The translations under genes were made by a program, and so were the position numbers. From contig JBLMWN010000067.1 in NCBI GenBank assembly GCA_050257255.1, positions 1 to 43,701 of the forward strand: a stretch of DNA of 43,701 nt, in the 5' to 3' direction. Shown here piece by piece: positions 1,623 to 10,991 of this stretch (position 1 is the first letter of the stretch; the number at the start of each line of letters is the position of its first letter). The notes beneath the pieces are model-generated. The model did no database searches. It was not told the DNA's origin and was given only the letters and a program-made list of their open reading frames with translations. The stretch is from Betaproteobacteria bacterium (GTDB taxonomy: Bacteria; Nitrospirota; UBA9217).

Positions 1623-2438
1623 GTGCGGAGCATTGTCGTGGAACGTATGAGGTTTGGACAGGATGCCTACCGGTCAGGGCCCCGAAAGCTTTCCCTTCCC
1701 GCCAGGCTCATGCCGTCATTCACATTTTACTTCTCGATGCTGCGGATCGTCATGCAGGCAAGCGGGAAAGCAAAACGGGGTAAGTATGATACGAAGGAAT
1801 GGTGCGAAAGCAGCCTGGCCATATTTCGCGCTCTTGAGCGGGTCGGCGTCAGGATTGAAATCAGCGGCATCGACAATTTTCGCTCCGTCGACGGACCCTG
1901 CGTCTTCATCGGCAACCACATGAGCACGCTCGAGACCTTCGTCTTGCCGGTCATCATTGCGCCGATCAAGGAAACGACCTTCGTAGTCAAACAGAGCCTC
2001 GTGGAATACCCGGTGTTCAAATACGTGATGCGGTCGCGCAATCCGGTCACGGTAGGCAGGTCAAACCCGCGTGACGATCTCAGGGCCGTCCTGGAGGGCG
2101 GTGTCGAACGGCTGAGCGCCGGCATATCGATCATTATCTTTCCGCAGACCACACGGACGCCGGAGTTTGACCAGCAACAGTTCAACACGATCGGGATCAA
2201 ACTCGCAAAAAGGGCGGGCGTGCCGGCGGTCCCCATCGCGCTCAAGACCGACGCCTGGGGCAATGGCGCGTATCTCAAGGATTTCGGCAGGATCGACCCC
2301 GTGAAAGCCGTTCACTTCGCGTTCGGGAAACCGCTCATGGTCAAGGACCGTGGGAATGAGGAACACCGGCAGATTATCGATTTTATCACGGAAAAACTGA
2401 AGGGATGGGCTCAGGAGCCGCAGAATCGCGACGCTTGA
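1623..2438 (+). CDS. Lysophospholipid/1-acylglycerol-3-phosphate acyltransferase family protein (variant motifs)
   Basis: PlsC-like layout: GNHMSTLE (HX4E in place of HX4D), IIFPQTTRT (in place of FPEGTR), VPAVPIAL. The track ORF starts at GTG 1623; ATG 1647 is an alternative start. Confidence 0.8.
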   Translation: MRSIVVERMRFGQDAYRSGPRKLSLPARLMPSFTFYFSMLRIVMQASGKAKRGKYDTKEWCESSLAIFRALERVGVRIEISGIDNFRSVDGPCVFIGNHMSTLETFVLPVIIAPIKETTFVVKQSLVEYPVFKYVMRSRNPVTVGRSNPRDDLRAVLEGGVERLSAGISIIIFPQTTRTPEFDQQQFNTIGIKLAKRAGVPAVPIALKTDAWGNGAYLKDFGRIDPVKAVHFAFGKPLMVKDRGNEEHRQIIDFITEKLKGWAQEPQNRDA

Positions 2439-2447
2439 TCTATTAAC

Positions 2448-2480
2448 CGGGAGGGGCGTATAGCGTTATACGCCCTCCCG
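2448..2480. terminator. GC-rich hairpin between convergent genes (possible bidirectional terminator)
   Basis: cgggaggggcgtata / tatacgccctcccg gives a 14-bp stem with one bulged G and a GCGT loop. It starts 10 nt after the acyltransferase stop. There is no clear U-tract. Confidence 0.4.
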
Positions 2481-2579
2481 TCAATTAAGAGAATCTCTTC
2501 CGGTTATTCTGGTTACTTGCGTCACCGGGAGGCGCTTTCTTGTCGAAATCCGCGACCAGGCGCCTTTTGAGCATCGGCC

Positions 2580-3287
2580 TTACTTGCTTTCCTTTGCCCC
2601 GATTTTGATCAACTCGACTTCAAAGATAAGCGTTGCGTTCGGACCGATCACGCCGCCGGCCCCACGCTCGCCGTATGCAAGATTAGCAGGGATGAACAGC
2701 TGCCACTTCGCGCCTTCTTTCATCAACTGCAGCGCCTCGGTCCAGCCTTTGATCACTCCGTTCACCTGGAAGGTCGCGGGCTCGTTGCGCTTGTACGAGC
2801 TGTCGAACTCTGTTCCGTCGATAAGAGTGCCGCGGTAGTGGACCGTGACCGTATCCGTTTCCTTAGGAGACGCGCCCTTTCCTTCCTTGATGACCTTGTA
2901 CTGCAGGCCGCTCGGCAGGGTCTTTACGCCTCCCTTCTTTTTATTCTCGGCGAGGAATGCATCGCCTTCTTTCTTGTTCTTTTCCGCCAGCGCTTTCATC
3001 TTTTCCTGCTGTTTGGCCTGGAATTCTTTCTGAAAAGCAACGAGCGTTTCACGGACTTCCTGCTCGGTCATGAGCGTCTTCGCGCCTGACAGCGCATCCC
3101 TCATGCCCTTCACAAGCAGTTCGGGATCAACATCGATTGAATTCTTTTTCAGGCTGTTGCCCATATCTACACCGATTGCATAGCTTACCTTGTCTTTTTG
3201 CGTTTTTAATTCGGCCTTCTCTCCTCCAAAAGCGGGGCTTACCGCGAGTGCCATGCACAACGAAATGATCAATACCCGTACGTTCAT
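2580..3287 (-). CDS. fkpA: Periplasmic FKBP-type peptidyl-prolyl cis-trans isomerase (FkpA/Mip-like)
   Basis: Signal peptide MNVRVLIISLCMALAVSPAFG, a Mip/FKBP_N-like helix region, and a C-terminal FKBP domain (VHYRGTLIDGTEFDSS...IKGW...LFIPANLAYG). ATG 3287 is preceded by AAGGAGAAGG. Confidence 0.9.
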   Translation of the reverse strand: MNVRVLIISLCMALAVSPAFGGEKAELKTQKDKVSYAIGVDMGNSLKKNSIDVDPELLVKGMRDALSGAKTLMTEQEVRETLVAFQKEFQAKQQEKMKALAEKNKKEGDAFLAENKKKGGVKTLPSGLQYKVIKEGKGASPKETDTVTVHYRGTLIDGTEFDSSYKRNEPATFQVNGVIKGWTEALQLMKEGAKWQLFIPANLAYGERGAGGVIGPNATLIFEVELIKIGAKESK

Positions 3288-3613
3288 ACCTTCTCCTTTT
3301 CTCATCAGAATAACGTCATCCTAAATCGGCAGTTTGAACTACAGATGACGCGGCAAAATCTCAGACCAATAACTTGTGTCAGGCAAGAATTCTTCCAAGG
3401 TTAAATCATGTTCTTGCCTTGCGGCGCTGAAACACCCGTGCCGCTGAGAAGCGCCTGCTTTTGGTTACCCATGGTTGAATGTTATTGGAATATTCTCGAG
3501 GTGAGCCTCTCCTGTTGTCTCAAGCCTTTTTAGGAAACAGTAACCTAACAGTACCAGCTTTCATACCGTTTGTCAATGTTCCGGCCGTACCCCCCGGACA
3601 CTGACGCCGGGCA

Positions 3614-4465
3614 TCAGAGCGCCATATCGAGGAACGTGAAGAGGAAAATGACCGTGCTGATGTAGCCGTTCATATTGAAGAATGCAAAATTAAGTTTCGA
3701 GAGATCGTTCTCCTTGACGAGGGTATGTTCATAAACCATCAGGCAGAGAGAGACAAAGACCCCTGCGATATAGAGCCAGCCGAGTGACAGCAGCCGGGCA
3801 AGCCAGAAAAGCGCCGCCATCGTGACCGCGTGAGACGCCCGTGATATCCAGAGCGAGCGCCTGATCCCGAAGCGCTGCGGAATGGAATGGAGACCCGTCT
3901 TCCGGTCGAAATCGATGTCCTGGAGCGCATAGAGAACGTCGAACCCGAGGAGCCAGAACAACACCGCGGCACCGAGCACGAGGGCCGGGGGCTCGATCCT
4001 CCCCGAGACGGCGATCCATGATCCGATCGGGGCAAGGGAGATGGCAAGCCCGAGGAAAGCGTGCGAAAGGAACGTAAACCGTTTGGTATAGGAATAGAAA
4101 AACACCACCGCAAGCGCAACAGGCGCGAGGTACAAGCTGAGCATGTTCAGCCGATAGGCGGCGTACAAGAGCAGGAACGACGAGGCCGCGGTGAAGAGGA
4201 TGACCTGCCGCGGTGTAACGAGACCTTTCGGCAGCGCCCGTTCTCTGGTCCGGGGGTTCCGCGCATCGAACGTCCGGTCCGCCCAGCGGTTGAAACCCAT
4301 GGCGGCGGAACGCGCGCCGAACATGGCCACGGCGATCCAGAGGATCTTATCCCACGACGGGATGCCCCGTGCCGCGAGCAGGGCGCCGGTGAATGCAAAA
4401 GGCAGGGCAAAGATCGTATGTTCGAACTTGATCATCTCGAGGATGATCTTGATTTTTTTCAGCAT
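3614..4465 (-). CDS. UbiA-family aromatic polyprenyltransferase (4-hydroxybenzoate polyprenyltransferase-like / MqnP-like)
   Basis: N-terminus IKFEHTIFALPFA, Asp-rich motif NRWADRTFDARNPRT, a second motif YALQDIDFD, and multiple TM helices. Confidence 0.9.
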   Translation of the reverse strand: MLKKIKIILEMIKFEHTIFALPFAFTGALLAARGIPSWDKILWIAVAMFGARSAAMGFNRWADRTFDARNPRTRERALPKGLVTPRQVILFTAASSFLLLYAAYRLNMLSLYLAPVALAVVFFYSYTKRFTFLSHAFLGLAISLAPIGSWIAVSGRIEPPALVLGAAVLFWLLGFDVLYALQDIDFDRKTGLHSIPQRFGIRRSLWISRASHAVTMAALFWLARLLSLGWLYIAGVFVSLCLMVYEHTLVKENDLSKLNFAFFNMNGYISTVIFLFTFLDMAL

Positions 4466-5454: not shown

Positions 5455-8070
5455 CTAGGTTCTGTATCCCCGTTCCAGCAGCTTTACGACTTCGTAATAC
5501 AGCGTCTTCACGATCTCGTCGTACTCCTTGCCGTCGGGATAGATCGGTTTGCCGATGGAGACGACGATCTTGGCAGGCCGAGGAAAACTCCTGCCCGGCG
5601 GCAGCATTTCGTAGGTTCCCCGGATAGCTACCGGGACGAGCGGAATATTCAGTTCCTTCGCGATGATCCCCACACCCTTCTTGAACTCCTTGATGCTCCC
5701 GTCGCGTGACCGGCTTCCCTCGGGGAATACGCAAAGGACCTTGCCCCGGCGAAGGACATGGGCCGAAAGCTGCATCGCGCTCGAGAGCCGCGTCTCCATG
5801 TTCACGGGGATCACATGGATACGTCTGGCTATCCTGGAAGTAACAGGACCGCCGAAATAATCCGTTGTCCCGAGGAAGAAGGTCTGCGATGCGATCTTCC
5901 AGGGTATTTTGCTCATGACCGCCGCCGCATCGACGAGGCTCAAGTGGTTCGGCGCGATGATGAAAGGTCCTGTCGCGGGCAGGTTCTCCGCGCCGCGCAC
6001 CGACAACTGTCCGTAAATCGTGAAGATGCCTTTGAGCACGAGCTTCAGAAGGCGCAGGGCGACAGCGCAGAAAGCGCCCGATTCGAGTTTGATCGACGCT
6101 TTCAGTTCCTCCGTAGGCTCCTGAGCGAGGATATCGGCCCAGGACATCTTTACGCTCTTGCCGGACGCCGACGGTCCCGAAGCCAGCAGTTCCTTGATCT
6201 TAAGGACAGCGTCCTTCACGGTAAAGACCTCTGAACCGAAGGAGTCGGGCAGGCTGACGCCGAACGATTTTTCGATGCTCACAACCAGTTCCACGCGGGC
6301 AAGCGAGTCCAGCCCGAGGTCAAGCTCCAGATTGTCGTCCGGCACGATGTTCTTCTTTGCCGAGAACGGCTCGAGGCAGGTCACGAGCTTTTTCATCACC
6401 GGGTCAGCAAGCAACCCTGCGTCGAATTCCTGGACCGCCTTTTCCGCGCGCTCTCCTGCCTGATCGTAGAGCTCCCTCACTTTGCTCCGCCGAAGCTTGC
6501 CCAGGCGCGTGACCGGCAAGGGGTCCTTGAAGATTTTGAGTCCCGTGATCCGCTTATAGGACGGCAGGTCCTTCGCGAGGTCTTCGATCTCAAAGGCAAT
6601 GGTCTCGCGCGAGTTCGACAGGTTCACCTTCCTGAGGTAATCGAAGTCCGGGACTACTGCGGCCTCAAGCCCGCGTTCGCCCTGGATAAGGCAAATTTCC
6701 TTGATGGACGGGATCTGCTTGTAGAACTTCTCGAGTTCGTCGGGAAATATCTTCTTTCCCGTCGAAAGCACAATCATTTCCTTCGATCGCCCGGTGATGA
6801 AGAAGTATCCGTCCTTGTCCCGGTACCCTAGGTCGCCCGTGTAGAGCCAGCCGTCCCTCAACACTTCGGCAGTCTCCTGAGGTTTCTGGTAGTATCCCAG
6901 CATGACATTCGGCCCGCGTACTGCGATTTCTCCCTGTCCGCTTTCGTCCGGGTTAGCGATCCTTACCTCGACCCCGGGGACGGAGATCCCGATGGATCCC
7001 GCTTTCTGTTTCGCAATGGGATTGAAGGTGCAGACGGGCGATGTCTCGGTAAGACCGTAGCCCTCGATGAGGGTGAACCCAAGGTTTGTCATGTCGGTAT
7101 ACACGTCCGGTTCGAGCCGGGCCCCGCCGCTTGCGGCAAGCTTGAACCGCTTCCCGAACCTGGCATGCACCGAGCCGAAGAGCGCTTTGCCGATGTTGAC
7201 GCCCGTCACGTTCCGGACAAGGCCGCTGATGCCGAGCAGGAACTTCACGAGCATCCTCACCAACGCCGGTTTTTTTTGAATCCCGTCGAAGATGGCCCGG
7301 CGCAATCCCGCGAACAGTTGGGGAACGCCAACGAGCACGCTGATGCCTGTCTCCTGAATGCAGGCAAGGATATCCGGGCCTTTCAGACTGTTCAGGATCG
7401 TTACTGTCGAGCCCACGGAAAGCGACAGCAGAATGCAGGCGATTGCCGGATAGGTATGATGGAGCGGAAGGAGGCAGAGGAGGTTGTCCCTGTCATCGAT
7501 GAGGTTTAGCTTGACCACGCTCTCGCAGTTCGACGCGAGGTTTCTGTGGGAGAGCATGACGCCTTTGGGGTCGCCGGTCGTGCCGGAGGTATAGAGCAGC
7601 GCGGCGAGGTCGTCTGCGGCCGGCGCCGGCGGAAGAGCGGCGTCGGGAAAAGCCGTGACCATGCCGGAGAACTGCGTTTCCCCGTTCCGGTCGAATGATA
7701 TGATCATGAACGAGCCGGTGCGACGAAGCTTCTGTCTCGTTTGGGCCGACACAAAGACTGCCTTTGTACCGGAGCTGAGGAGGAGCAGCGCAACCTCCTT
7801 GTCCGTCAGCTGCGCGTCGAGAGGTACGATGACCGCGCCCAGGGCGACGACCGAGAGATAAGCGATCATCCACTCGGGCCGGTTTTCGGAAATAAGGGCC
7901 AGCCGATCGCCTTTCACGATTCCCTGCCCTGCAAGCGACCGGGACACCGAAGCCACGGCCTTGATGAGTTCCCGGTACGTATACCGCTGATACCCCTCGC
8001 CGGTCTTTATCTGGACGGCAATATGATCGGGATAGCGTAAAGCGGTCTCCTGGATGCTGGTCAGGATCAT
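5455..8070 (-). CDS. Tri-domain fusion: acyl-AMP ligase (fatty acyl-CoA/ACP synthetase-like), carrier protein and PlsC-type acyltransferase
   Basis: AMP-binding motifs YTSGTTGDPKGV, GYGLTE, YTGDLG, GRSKEMI. Phosphopantetheine site LGLDSLARVEL. Acyltransferase motifs APNHLSLVDA (HX4D), FPEGSRSRDG, PLVPVAIRG. A single 871-aa ORF. Confidence 0.92.
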   Translation of the reverse strand: MILTSIQETALRYPDHIAVQIKTGEGYQRYTYRELIKAVASVSRSLAGQGIVKGDRLALISENRPEWMIAYLSVVALGAVIVPLDAQLTDKEVALLLLSSGTKAVFVSAQTRQKLRRTGSFMIISFDRNGETQFSGMVTAFPDAALPPAPAADDLAALLYTSGTTGDPKGVMLSHRNLASNCESVVKLNLIDDRDNLLCLLPLHHTYPAIACILLSLSVGSTVTILNSLKGPDILACIQETGISVLVGVPQLFAGLRRAIFDGIQKKPALVRMLVKFLLGISGLVRNVTGVNIGKALFGSVHARFGKRFKLAASGGARLEPDVYTDMTNLGFTLIEGYGLTETSPVCTFNPIAKQKAGSIGISVPGVEVRIANPDESGQGEIAVRGPNVMLGYYQKPQETAEVLRDGWLYTGDLGYRDKDGYFFITGRSKEMIVLSTGKKIFPDELEKFYKQIPSIKEICLIQGERGLEAAVVPDFDYLRKVNLSNSRETIAFEIEDLAKDLPSYKRITGLKIFKDPLPVTRLGKLRRSKVRELYDQAGERAEKAVQEFDAGLLADPVMKKLVTCLEPFSAKKNIVPDDNLELDLGLDSLARVELVVSIEKSFGVSLPDSFGSEVFTVKDAVLKIKELLASGPSASGKSVKMSWADILAQEPTEELKASIKLESGAFCAVALRLLKLVLKGIFTIYGQLSVRGAENLPATGPFIIAPNHLSLVDAAAVMSKIPWKIASQTFFLGTTDYFGGPVTSRIARRIHVIPVNMETRLSSAMQLSAHVLRRGKVLCVFPEGSRSRDGSIKEFKKGVGIIAKELNIPLVPVAIRGTYEMLPPGRSFPRPAKIVVSIGKPIYPDGKEYDEIVKTLYYEVVKLLERGYRT

Positions 8071-8550: not shown

Positions 8551-8764
8551 CGAGGGGGGAAAATTGTCAAGACAGGCGCTGCCGCTTGTTAAACATCTAT
8601 TTGCTTGACTCTTCCGTTTTCTTTGCTTAAACTTGATTATAATAAGAGTAATACGTGTCGCAAAATCGAGAGATCAGGGCTGAGAAGCAGCCGGTTGCGG
8701 GTACTTCTTTGCCCAATCCGTATTTTCCTAATTCTATTTTCCGGATACTATGAAGGAGGATCCT

Positions 8765-9079
8765 ATGCCTAAATATCCCCAGCAATATACCAGCATCATG
8801 AAAAAGTACAAGGGAGTGATAAAGGCCCTCGACGGCCTCGGCAGGGCGGCCAAGTCAGCGGGGCCGCTCAATAAGAAAATGTCGGAGCTGATTCAGCTCG
8901 CCGCAGCAGCAGCCATACACTCCGAAGGATCGGTTCATTCCCACACCCGGCGCGCCCTGGCTGCCGGGGCAAAGCCGGACGAAATCCGCCACGCGATCGT
9001 TCTGCTCACCAGCACCATCGGCTTCCCCACGGTTTCGGCCGCGCTTTCCTGGATCGATGACTTACTGGAAAAAAAGTAA
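8765..9079 (+). CDS. Carboxymuconolactone decarboxylase (AhpD-like) family protein, lacking the CxxC
   Basis: CMD-like core LIQLAAAAAIHSEGSVHSHTRRALAAGAKPDEIRHAI. ATG 8765 lies 4 nt after a perfect AAGGAGGA; the track ORF starts at 8750. Confidence 0.85.
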   Translation: MPKYPQQYTSIMKKYKGVIKALDGLGRAAKSAGPLNKKMSELIQLAAAAAIHSEGSVHSHTRRALAAGAKPDEIRHAIVLLTSTIGFPTVSAALSWIDDLLEKK

Positions 9080-9460: not shown

Positions 9461-9691
9461 ATGGCAATGACGAAAGTAACAATTACCCGAGAAGAGTGCA
9501 TCAGCTGCGAATCTTGCTGGACCGTCTGCCCCGAGTTTTTCCAGCAGAACTCCACGGACAGCTGGAGCGAAGTCGTTCCGAGGTACCGGACCGGCGGGGA
9601 TCCCGCCGAGGGGGAAGCGCCCGCGGAACTCCTGGACAAGGTGCAGGAAGCGTCGGACTCATGCCCGGTCCAGATCATCCATGTGGGATGA
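9461..9691 (+). CDS. Small 4Fe-4S ferredoxin
   Basis: CISCESCWTVCP plus a distal DSCP. ATG 9461 lies 6 nt after GAGGAAAGG. The track ORF begins at GTG 9392. Confidence 0.85.
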   Translation: MAMTKVTITREECISCESCWTVCPEFFQQNSTDSWSEVVPRYRTGGDPAEGEAPAELLDKVQEASDSCPVQIIHVG

Positions 9692-9843
9692 CATTTACAC
9701 ATCGGCACATTCTTTGAACAAGTGAAGGTCATTTTTCACACGAAGCTACAAAACCGAAGAGAACGATGGCTTACAATCAATTTGATTTTTCTTCGGGCCA
9801 TCGTGGCTTCGGGAGAGACAGGCATTTTTTGATTTAATCAATC

Positions 9844-10164
9844 ATGCCTCTGAAGATCGACGTCTATATGTCCGAGATCTGCGGGTCCTACCATCAGCTC
9901 CGCGAGAACCTCGACCGGGCCCTCGCGGAGCTCGAGATCGACGCCGACGTGCGTTATCAGACGCTCTATTATGACGACGCCGTCAGCCGCGACATCAAAG
10001 GCTCGCCATCCATCTGGATCAACGGAAAGGACGCCTTCAAAGGCGGGAACCCGCCCGGCATCACCTGAAGGATGTACAGGGACGAGTCCGGGAGACTCGG
10101 GAACGTTCCGTCCGTGGAGATGCTGAAACGGGCCATCCGAAACAACCTGTCGGACGCCTCATGA
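9844..10164 (+). CDS. Thioredoxin-fold protein; candidate selenoprotein (in-frame UGA at 10066-10068)
   Basis: The 74-aa ORF (KIDVYMSEICGS...GSPSIWINGKD) ends at TGA 10066-10068. The same frame stays open for 31 more codons (RMYRDESGRLGNVPSVEMLKRAIRNNLSDAS) to TGA 10162-10164. A hairpin lies 14 nt past the UGA. The 9844..10068 part is confident; the read-through is a hypothesis. Confidence 0.5.
10083..10099 (+). promoter_or_regulatory. SECIS-like hairpin downstream of the in-frame UGA
   Basis: CGAGUC-CGGGA-GACUCG: a 6-bp stem and a G-rich 5-nt loop. The stem starts 14 nt after UGA 10066-10068. Confidence 0.35.
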
Positions 10165-10352
10165 TGGGTGAACCTGAAAAGAGCATTTGGGCACGAAAGA
10201 GGCGAATTAACACAAGATAAATGCAGATAAAGTGTAGAGCAAGACATTCACCTGTTCGGTGATCCTCATCACGAGAAAATCCGCTGTTATCCGACTCTTA
10301 TCCGATTTGATCTGTTTCAAATGCCGTTTTTAAGGTGAAAGGAGCCCCAGGA

Positions 10353-10991
10353 ATGAAATCGCAGGAGCCACTCATCCTCCTTGTCATCGTCGGCATCAGC
10401 CTTTTCGTATCCGCCATCCGCCCCTATAACGGTCTGACCTGGCTGCTCGAGGTGTCGCCTGTACTCATCGCTGCGCCGATTCTGGTTGCTACGTACCGCG
10501 GATTCCCGCTCACCCCGCTCCTTTACCGGCTCATTTTTATTCATTCGCTGATTCTCATCGCCGGCGGCCACTACACGTATGCTCGCGTTCCGCTCGGCAC
10601 CTGGGCGCAGAATTTTTTCCATCTTGCAAGGAATCATTATGACCGGCTGGGCCACTTTGCGCAGGGGTTCATTCCCGCGATGGTCGCACGGGAGATTCTG
10701 TTAAGGAAGTCACTGTTGCGTCCGGGCAAGTGGCTTTTCTTTCTCGTGGTGTGCGTCTGCCTGGCTTTCAGCGCCTTCTATGAGTTCATTGAGTGGTGGA
10801 CGGCTGTCATCATAGGACAAGCCGCTACGGACTTTCTCGGAACCCAGGGCGATGGCTGGGACACGCAGTGGGACATGTTCATGGCCTTTGTCGGCGCTAT
10901 AACCGCACAGCTCACTTTATCCAGACTGCATGATCAGGAACTGGAGAGCCTCAGCACAACCGAAACGGAAGCAAAGACGTCGAAAATATAA
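10353..10991 (+). CDS. DUF2238 (YjdF-like) inner-membrane protein
   Basis: Polytopic membrane protein with GGHYTYARVPLG...RNHYDRLGHFAQGF. ATG 10353 lies 8 nt after AAGGAG. Confidence 0.85.
   Translation: MKSQEPLILLVIVGISLFVSAIRPYNGLTWLLEVSPVLIAAPILVATYRGFPLTPLLYRLIFIHSLILIAGGHYTYARVPLGTWAQNFFHLARNHYDRLGHFAQGFIPAMVAREILLRKSLLRPGKWLFFLVVCVCLAFSAFYEFIEWWTAVIIGQAATDFLGTQGDGWDTQWDMFMAFVGAITAQLTLSRLHDQELESLSTTETEAKTSKI

Follow-up and report, generated by a model that had tools for sequence, protein, structure and literature searches.

A thioredoxin-fold gene interrupted by an in-frame UGA very probably encodes a selenoprotein related to the DF family

The stretch of DNA analysed here, referred to below as the window, comprises 43,701 nucleotides of contig JBLMWN010000067.1 (assembly GCA_050257255.1), and the element in question is a short thioredoxin-fold open reading frame (ORF) that public annotation ends at an in-frame TGA. 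Positions 9844-10164 of the window very probably form one gene, encoding a 106-residue thioredoxin-fold selenoprotein, in which, on comparison with its relatives, the stop codon at 10066-68 almost certainly encodes selenocysteine (Sec).

An ATG at 9844 opens a 74-codon ORF on the plus strand which stops at TGA 10066-68; past this codon the frame remains open for 31 codons (RMYRDESGRLGNVPSVEMLKRAIRNNLSDAS), up to TGA 10162-64. TGA terminates 14 of the 40 long ORFs in the window and is thus an ordinary stop there, which argues that it has not been reassigned genome-wide. The product matched the Pfam family PF13192, Thioredoxin_3 (26.3-26.6 bits, above the gathering threshold of 24.8), over residues 4-70, corresponding to positions 2-66 of the 76 in the profile; because the match reaches only position 66, the 74-residue product would be without the end of the domain, and the missing helix is supplied by the extension. 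An earlier reading of the DNA, made from its letters without database searches and called here the sequence-only reading, had described the interrupted ORF with its open extension and had proposed that the truncated product lacks a fold element; both descriptions were borne out. The parts of the gene are as follows.

9844-10164, plus strand: complete predicted selenoprotein coding sequence, 106 codons plus stop; translated product MPLKIDVYMSEICGSYHQL...PPGIT-U-RMYRDESGRLGNVPSVEMLKRAIRNNLSDAS.
9880-9882, plus strand: TGC codon of Cys13, equivalent to the first Cys of a thioredoxin CxxC, the second Cys being replaced by Tyr16.
10000-10008, plus strand: Gly53-Ser54-Pro55, the cis-proline loop motif of the thioredoxin fold, aligning with AVPT of 1fo5.
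10066-10068, plus strand: in-frame UGA, predicted selenocysteine 75, in place of the Cys of the family CRxY motif (TGA in 33 of 33 sequences; Cys in homologues).
10069-10161, plus strand: 31 codons that would be translated only after Sec insertion, encoding the RxY motif together with a beta-hairpin and the helix that completes the fold (NVPSVEMLKRAI).
10083-10099, plus strand: candidate selenocysteine insertion sequence (SECIS) hairpin CGAGUC-CGGGA-GACUCG, 14 nt past the UGA; core 10084-10098.
10162-10164, plus strand: true stop TGA, with no SECIS 3' of it; orthologues end in TAA, TAG or TGA, and at differing positions.

In a collection of 5.8 billion proteins, 218 homologues were found, and the best 120 of these all terminate at the same place, with a length of 72-74 residues, any excess over this being confined to the N-terminus. 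When one genome per species was scanned, 33 loci were obtained, all in Nitrospirota metagenome-assembled genomes (MAGs) and 32 of them intact; the 32 intact loci and the window are referred to as the 33 sequences. The codon following ...PG[IVL][TASML] was TGA in every one of the 32 intact loci and never TAA or TAG. In the same loci the frame stays open for 26-49 codons past the TGA, reading R-x-[YF]-x-D-E-S-G-R-L-x-N-V-P-S-V-x-M-L-K-x-A-I, and closes with terminal stops that differ in type and position. The annotated homologues end near residue 74 because gene callers stop at the TGA, which is conserved in 33 of 33 sequences. Two observations that the sequence-only reading had set down as counting against a selenoprotein, homologues ending near residue 74 and an unconserved downstream segment, therefore parted company: the annotated homologues do end there, but the protein sequence encoded downstream is conserved at all of the loci. 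Nor was the third such observation, a lack of coding constraint over 10069-10161, made; the ratio of nonsynonymous to synonymous change (pN/pS) was 0.39 in extension codons 87-100, compared with 0.36 in the N-terminal 73 codons, and ranged from 0.26 to 0.39 over the extension.

The codon-level pattern was of the same kind upstream and downstream of the TGA. Cys13 is invariant in the 33 sequences, and Gly53-Ser54-Pro55 are invariant as residues while their third codon positions are free (entropy 1.5-1.9 bits); in the extension, V89, P90, S91 and V92 are conserved as residues (P90 invariant), with third-position entropies of 1.7-2.0 bits. A separate small ORF starting from the ATG at 10072 was considered and rejected, as this codon (codon 77) is ATG in just 9 of the 33 sequences; with Met at residue 77 in so few of them, the extension is not generally initiated independently. 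On the minus strand, a 92-codon ORF (9969-10247) overlaps the extension and has a counterpart in 19 of the 33 sequences. It shares wobble positions with the plus-strand frame, so that third-position variation alone cannot separate the two strands; this antisense ORF looks like a shadow of the real gene.

Metagenomes were scanned with a 33-nt degenerate DNA pattern that spans both TGA and hairpin. This combined signature was carried by at least 120 contigs, and among the matches with sufficient upstream sequence the upstream ORF was always of the same family, with no off-family match. Two loci depart from the rule at the Sec codon itself. L033 has TGC (Cys) at 3220-3222, with a frameshifted upstream ORF and a degraded hairpin, and L044, a 910-bp read assembly, has CGA (Arg) at this codon, within 199-516, with the hairpin intact; these exceptions may be decaying copies or sequencing errors.

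Continuous homologues with Cys at the position of the UGA provided the second line of evidence. A profile of the read-through products retrieved two such proteins, P0121 and P0122, each of 102 residues, in which Cys is aligned to the UGA in the context GSAGI[TF]-C-RAYPD. An exhaustive HMMER search seeded with both, over 1.84 billion cluster representatives, gave 304 matches, and residues were counted in the best 149 of these, taken as 50%-identity representatives. Position 75 is Cys in 107 of the 108 full-length representatives, where it forms part of a CRxY motif (Arg76 in 108/108, Tyr78 in 104/108), and Pro89 is present in all 108. Cys also occupies position 13 in 140 of the 141 representatives aligned there. 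The CxxC redox motif is absent, the motif being C-G-S-Y and position 16 being Cys in none of the 149. Both C13 and C75 occur in 101 of the 149, and they are the only Cys pair conserved family-wide. A further 38 have C13 with nothing aligned at position 75, most of them terminating a few residues before it, which suggests additional Sec forms. The sequence-only reading had proposed looking for continuous homologues with Cys or Sec at residue 75, and these were found in P0121, P0122 and nearly all full-length representatives; its idea that a C13/U75 pair was conceivable gained substance, as these are the only two family-conserved Cys positions and position 16 is never Cys. Two long proteins among the matches, P0158 (1656 residues, 14 matched stretches) and P0242 (815 residues, 10 stretches), matched repeatedly around CRxY, and are either repeat proteins of the CRxY segment or low-complexity artefacts.

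The hairpin downstream of the UGA is conserved at the level of the nucleotide. RNAalifold, applied to the 33 sequences, returned exactly one helix, GAGUC/GACUC, closed by the loop CGGG[A/C]; in the window the apical loop is CGGGA at 10089-10093 and begins 20 nt past the UGA. This consensus is exactly the SECIS-like hairpin that the sequence-only reading had placed at 10083-10099. All five stem pairs are kept throughout, the variation being limited to U-A becoming U-G and to one G-G cell. An optional sixth pair, 10083-10099 (C-G in the window), forms as U-A in 14 sequences and as C-G in 5, and does not form in the other 14. The fold of lowest energy for 10060-10130 is a different, longer hairpin; as it is not conserved (68% of cells paired), the 5-bp consensus was preferred to it. 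Codons 82-86, which encode the hairpin (GAG UCC GGG NGN CUC), have third-position entropies of 0-0.4 bits except at the Arg codon, compared with 1.4-1.9 bits for equally conserved Ser, Gly and Leu codons elsewhere; pS is 0.27 in these five codons against 0.67-0.84 elsewhere. The encoded peptide, ESGRL, becomes ASGKI or ISGKV in the two Cys forms P0121 and P0122, and the hairpin is gone in the Cys-form gene at locus L036. ESGRL is fixed in Sec forms because of the hairpin that encodes it, and is relaxed in the two Cys forms.

In the published model of the bacterial SECIS (bSECIS), the loop measures 3-9 nt and the stem 4-16 bp, G occurs within the first two positions of the loop, and 16-37 nt separate the UGA from the loop (PMC13188914, Fig. 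2). The hairpin in the window agrees with it on all four counts, with a 5-nt loop that has G at position 2, a stem of 5-6 bp and a spacing of 20 nt. A permissive Rfam scan of 9700-10400 returned nothing relevant. By the standard bacterial mechanism, a ribosome arriving at UGA 10066-68 would encounter the hairpin at 10084-10098 acting as a SECIS; this would recruit SelB-GTP carrying Sec-tRNA(Sec), Sec would be inserted, and the remaining 31 codons would be translated to the stop at 10162-64.

The full-length product aligned from end to end with a named family of approximately 100-residue domains, NCBIfam NF049942, "DF family (seleno)protein" (47.5 bits, E = 1.4e-12, residues 5-97 on positions 1-96 of the 96 in the profile). 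The Cys form P0122 scored 42.7 bits against the same profile, and all 32 diverse family members tested matched it. The conserved residues of the family are present in the predicted product: C13, the G53-S54-P55 motif (G-S/G-P in the family), U75-R76-M77-Y78 at the site of Cys75-Arg76-x-Tyr78, and the Pro (P89) before the last helix. These profile comparisons show the predicted product to be a divergent relative of the DF family, already known to hold a selenoprotein alongside many Cys forms. The two differ in the position of Sec, the published prototype having it at the N-terminal Cys, whereas the window gene has TGC (Cys) there and TGA only at the CRxY site. They differ also in the hairpin, the Desulfobulbales genes being without the one encoded by ESGRL, and in the partner gene described below, which is specific to the window's subclade.

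The prototype itself was compared with the window gene at the CRxY site. The 2025 description of "hypothetical protein DF" drew on a single genome, that of Desulfosediminicola flagellatus, and gave the protein Sec at the N-terminal Cys and an end at ...EQFGIS; no other TGA-containing homologue was reported in the deep-Sep paper (PMC12013277). In the D. flagellatus gene (CP050698.1; TGAs at 3974-3976 and 4172-4174 of locus L039), a second in-frame TGA directly follows GIS, and is followed in turn by RRYGVSSIPSEELITAALEEAAQTGQ and TAA; this second TGA is exactly the Sec site of the window gene. A Desulforhopalus MAG (L167, 2974-2976 and 3172-3174) has both TGAs in the same arrangement, and in metagenome relatives the first site is Cys and the second TGA. 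From this arrangement, the published prototype is probably truncated, the real protein containing two Sec residues. Sec can thus stand at both conserved Cys positions, and no other indirect argument for their forming a joint active centre is as strong.

An AlphaFold2 model of the Cys homologue P0122 adopted a thioredoxin fold (predicted local distance difference test, pLDDT, 94.7; predicted template-modelling score, pTM, 0.85), with Cys73 at the end of an extra strand and a helix at residues 89-99; a Foldseek search of the PDB with this model placed thioredoxins best, at a template-modelling (TM) score of about 0.5. By sequence, the closest solved structures are those of archaeal redoxins belonging to Thioredoxin_3, namely MJ0307 (1fo5), MTH807 (1nho) and MTH895 (1ilo), with E = 1e-7 to 7e-3. 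They have the minimal thioredoxin fold in common with the window protein; in the profile alignment Cys13 falls on the first Cys of CPHC in 1fo5 (CPxC in the MTH proteins), and the cis-Pro loop and the last helix (GAPTKEALVEAI) also align. In contrast to the window protein, which is without the second Cys, the archaeal redoxins have a canonical CxxC and no Sec, and the structural similarity is moderate (TM about 0.5). The window protein also has an insertion of approximately 22 residues between an NG turn and the last helix, and it is this insertion that bears the CRxY Sec/Cys. The alignments thus show the predicted Sec75 to replace a near-invariant CRxY Cys within a family-specific insertion.

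Canonical thioredoxin-fold selenoproteins (thioredoxin, glutaredoxin, peroxiredoxin-like, DsbA-like and PF13192 Sec.1/Sec.2 proteins) resemble the window gene in fold, in having an in-gene SECIS after the UGA and in having Cys homologues, but their Sec lies in or next to an N-terminal U/CxxC/U, or in CxU/UxC (PMC13188914), whereas that of the window protein lies some 60 residues away. Since Cys13 corresponds to the first Cys of the CxxC and the second is absent, Cys13 and Sec75 would form a two-residue thiol/selenol centre, with the two residues predicted to lie close together; Sec75 appears, by alignment, to occupy the partner position of a split active site.

The genes around the selenoprotein gene were compared across its subclade, defined by the pattern C-G-S-Y ... 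W-I-N-G ... PGIT-U and represented by 78 loci. Two upstream genes on the same strand are of interest.

8750-9079, plus strand: Cys-less CMD/AhpD-like partner gene (Pfam CMD, E = 1e-15), with SEGSVHSH where AhpD-type proteins have CxxCxxxH.
9461-9691, plus strand: single-cluster 4Fe-4S ferredoxin of 76 residues (Pfam Fer4_13, E = 9e-14), between the CMD and selenoprotein genes.

The CMD gene precedes the selenoprotein gene, in the same orientation, in 31 of the 33 sequences and in 69 of the 78 subclade loci, and it precedes the Cys form too. Its motif is SEGSVHSH in 28 of 32 sequences and AEGSVHSH in the other 4, with no Cys in any of the 32; for a protein without Cys, one may ask whether the reactive residue comes from the selenoprotein. 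The ferredoxin gene is optional, being found in 16 of the 33 sequences and in 32 of the 78 loci, and it is absent at the Cys-form locus (L036), where the order is CMD, DF gene and a thioredoxin with a zinc ribbon. The sequence-only reading had named CMD/AhpD-like and ferredoxin neighbours, and both assignments stood. An SGNH hydrolase gene lies downstream in 46 of the 78 loci. For P0161, P0172 and P0187, which are distant Cys forms, the gene context yielded no information or was not on record.

In a promoter and terminator scan, the sole signal of its kind was a weak promoter-like site at 8605-8633, upstream of CMD, and no terminator was found between the genes. Further upstream, on the minus strand at 5455-8070, lies an 871-residue ORF, taken by the sequence-only reading for a fusion of acyl-CoA (AMP-dependent) ligase, carrier and acyltransferase; it is conserved upstream of CMD in 16 loci. 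The contig is labelled by NCBI as part of a Betaproteobacteria bacterium MAG, yet all 33 genome loci are from Nitrospirota, at 80% identity or less, with a shared gene order (CMD, ferredoxin, SGNH hydrolase and the 5455-8070 fusion); the contig may be mis-binned or mislabelled.

From the CMD gene and the thioredoxin gene beside the Cys form, we infer that a redox role is favoured. In the Nitrospirota subclade of the window, the protein would most likely act as a selenylsulfide-forming redox protein, working with the Cys-less CMD/AhpD-like protein encoded directly upstream, and its re-reduction could proceed via the neighbouring ferredoxin or, as the Cys form would suggest, via a thioredoxin.

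Several observations weigh against this account of a Sec-containing redox protein. The window alone is unremarkable, a 31-codon open stretch being common at 54% GC, and it is the comparison with relatives that gives the UGA and the hairpin all of their significance. The stem hardly varies, with no clear covariation in the 33-sequence alignment, so that support for the hairpin derives from the suppression of synonymous change and not from compensatory change. The 17-nt hairpin on its own folds at -6.8 kcal/mol, borderline with respect to the bSECIS model threshold of -7.5 kcal/mol or lower (PMC13188914), and attains -15.2 only when extended by a lower stem that lacks conservation; the 71-nt region shows no gain in folding over shuffled sequences (z = -0.25). 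The NF049942 score of 47.5 bits does not reach the curated cutoff of 70 bits. None of selA, selB, selC and selD was seen within the 43.7-kb contig, a Pfam scan of the ten largest ORFs in the window detected no Sec-synthesis domains, and no tRNA was found in the window; across 166 loci there was no tRNA-Sec and one tRNA-Cys only. The use of Sec by the phylum is supported indirectly, its sole basis being the reported embedding of selC in selB in Nitrospirae. Finally, the ars/mer context of a sister subclade points to metal or metalloid binding and not to redox catalysis.

This last observation underlies a possible, though doubtful, alternative for the role of the same selenoprotein, namely that it is a soft metal or metalloid binder whose Cys13/Sec75 site would take up Hg(II), As(III) or an organometal as a chelate for delivery to a partner, in the manner of ArsD, MerP or NmerA. 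The sister subclade (C-x-S-E ... GFS-U-RMF) shares its SECIS and its Sec site with the window's subclade but has other neighbours. At L042 the sister gene (950-1258) lies between genes for MerR (477-902) and MerT (1371-1718), followed by an HMA protein (MerP, 1752-2033) and a MerA-like protein (2046-3449); L133 is a further locus of the sister subclade. Other sister genes adjoin ArsR (8 loci), an ArsP permease (7), an ACR3-type transporter (6) or an ArsM-like methyltransferase (4), and an ArsE-like Thioredoxin_3 protein is also among the neighbours; these counts are small because most of the contigs are short. At L091 the frame stays open for approximately 260 codons past TGA 1049-1051, joining the Sec-containing DF domain to MerB (Pfam E = 1.3e-29) in one in-frame fusion. 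MerR-family regulators also occur near the more distant family members L040 and L046. The related Pfam family DUF2703 (PF10865) matched 16 of 27 clade members weakly, with a best E of 3.9e-4. Selenolate binds Hg more tightly than thiolate does, and ArsD combines a thioredoxin-like scaffold with the absence of a functional CxxC, and binds metalloid through Cys; the neighbourhoods of the sister clade would suggest an analogous job for the DF domain. However, no ArsD family was detected in Pfam or NCBIfam scans of the window product, its DUF2703 score (11.9-12.7 bits) lies below the gathering threshold of 23.6, and none of the 78 loci of the window's subclade has ars or mer neighbours, with CMD, ferredoxin and SGNH hydrolase genes present instead. 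The thioredoxin beside the Cys form, moreover, suggests a disulfide that is turned over, and for the window's subclade the redox role remains the one favoured.

Insertion of a residue other than Sec was also weighed. UGA 10066-68 might be read through by a near-cognate or suppressor tRNA (Trp, Cys or Arg), with the hairpin serving as a general stimulator of read-through, and it is true that L044 has an Arg codon at the site with its hairpin intact, and that no Sec machinery was found in the sequences examined. Leaky termination would, however, tolerate TAG as well, and TGA is exclusive in the sampled loci; Cys occupies the site in 107 of the 108 full-length representatives, a hallmark of Sec/Cys exchange, the hairpin fits the SelB-type SECIS model in loop sequence and spacing, and the other Cys of the family is an accepted Sec site. 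Together these points make read-through of this kind very improbable. Still harder to credit is that the TGA is a true stop ending a 74-residue thioredoxin family protein, as the window gene and all of its more than 200 retrieved homologues are publicly annotated, with the downstream conservation owed to a regulatory RNA or to the antisense ORF and its shared wobble positions: the antisense ORF has a counterpart in only 19 of the 33 sequences, the 74-residue product would be without the last helix of its fold, the peptide encoded past the TGA aligns position by position with the C-terminal third of the Cys forms and with the full NF049942 profile, and an exclusive TGA contrasts with mixed terminal stops.

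For a selenoprotein at 9844-10164, the kind of decoding mechanism, the fold and the named family are already known. New are the position of the Sec, the large Nitrospirota subclade with its CMD partner (of which an earlier mention in selenoprotein surveys is possible), the correction of the DF prototype, and the link of the sister clade to ars, mer and MerB. The gene is systematically misannotated, being cut at the Sec codon in all of its more than 200 clusters in the 5.8-billion-protein collection and named, where it is named at all, "thioredoxin family protein" or "hypothetical", and truncation likewise affects about one in four of the family's nearest 50%-identity clusters; as a consequence, counts of the Nitrospirota selenoproteome are too low. 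The TGA together with the hairpin constitutes a precise DNA signature by which such genes can be found.

The two probable Sec residues of the DF prototype predict a diselenide or bis-selenolate centre, and the ars/mer neighbourhoods of the sister clade, with the MerB fusion, provide a concrete mercury/arsenic hypothesis for a domain of unknown function. Tentatively, the DF domain may be an unrecognised thioredoxin-fold carrier of soft metals and metalloids, with a selenium-tuned 13/75 site that occurs as C/C, C/U or U/U; in the sister clade it would hand Hg or As to MerB, MerA or ArsP, and in the Nitrospirota clade it would have joined a Cys-less AhpD-like protein and a ferredoxin in a new module, dependent on selenium, for detoxification or redox chemistry. 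If this is true, the module would be very common in the Nitrospirota of soil, sediment and groundwater, and invisible to current annotation.

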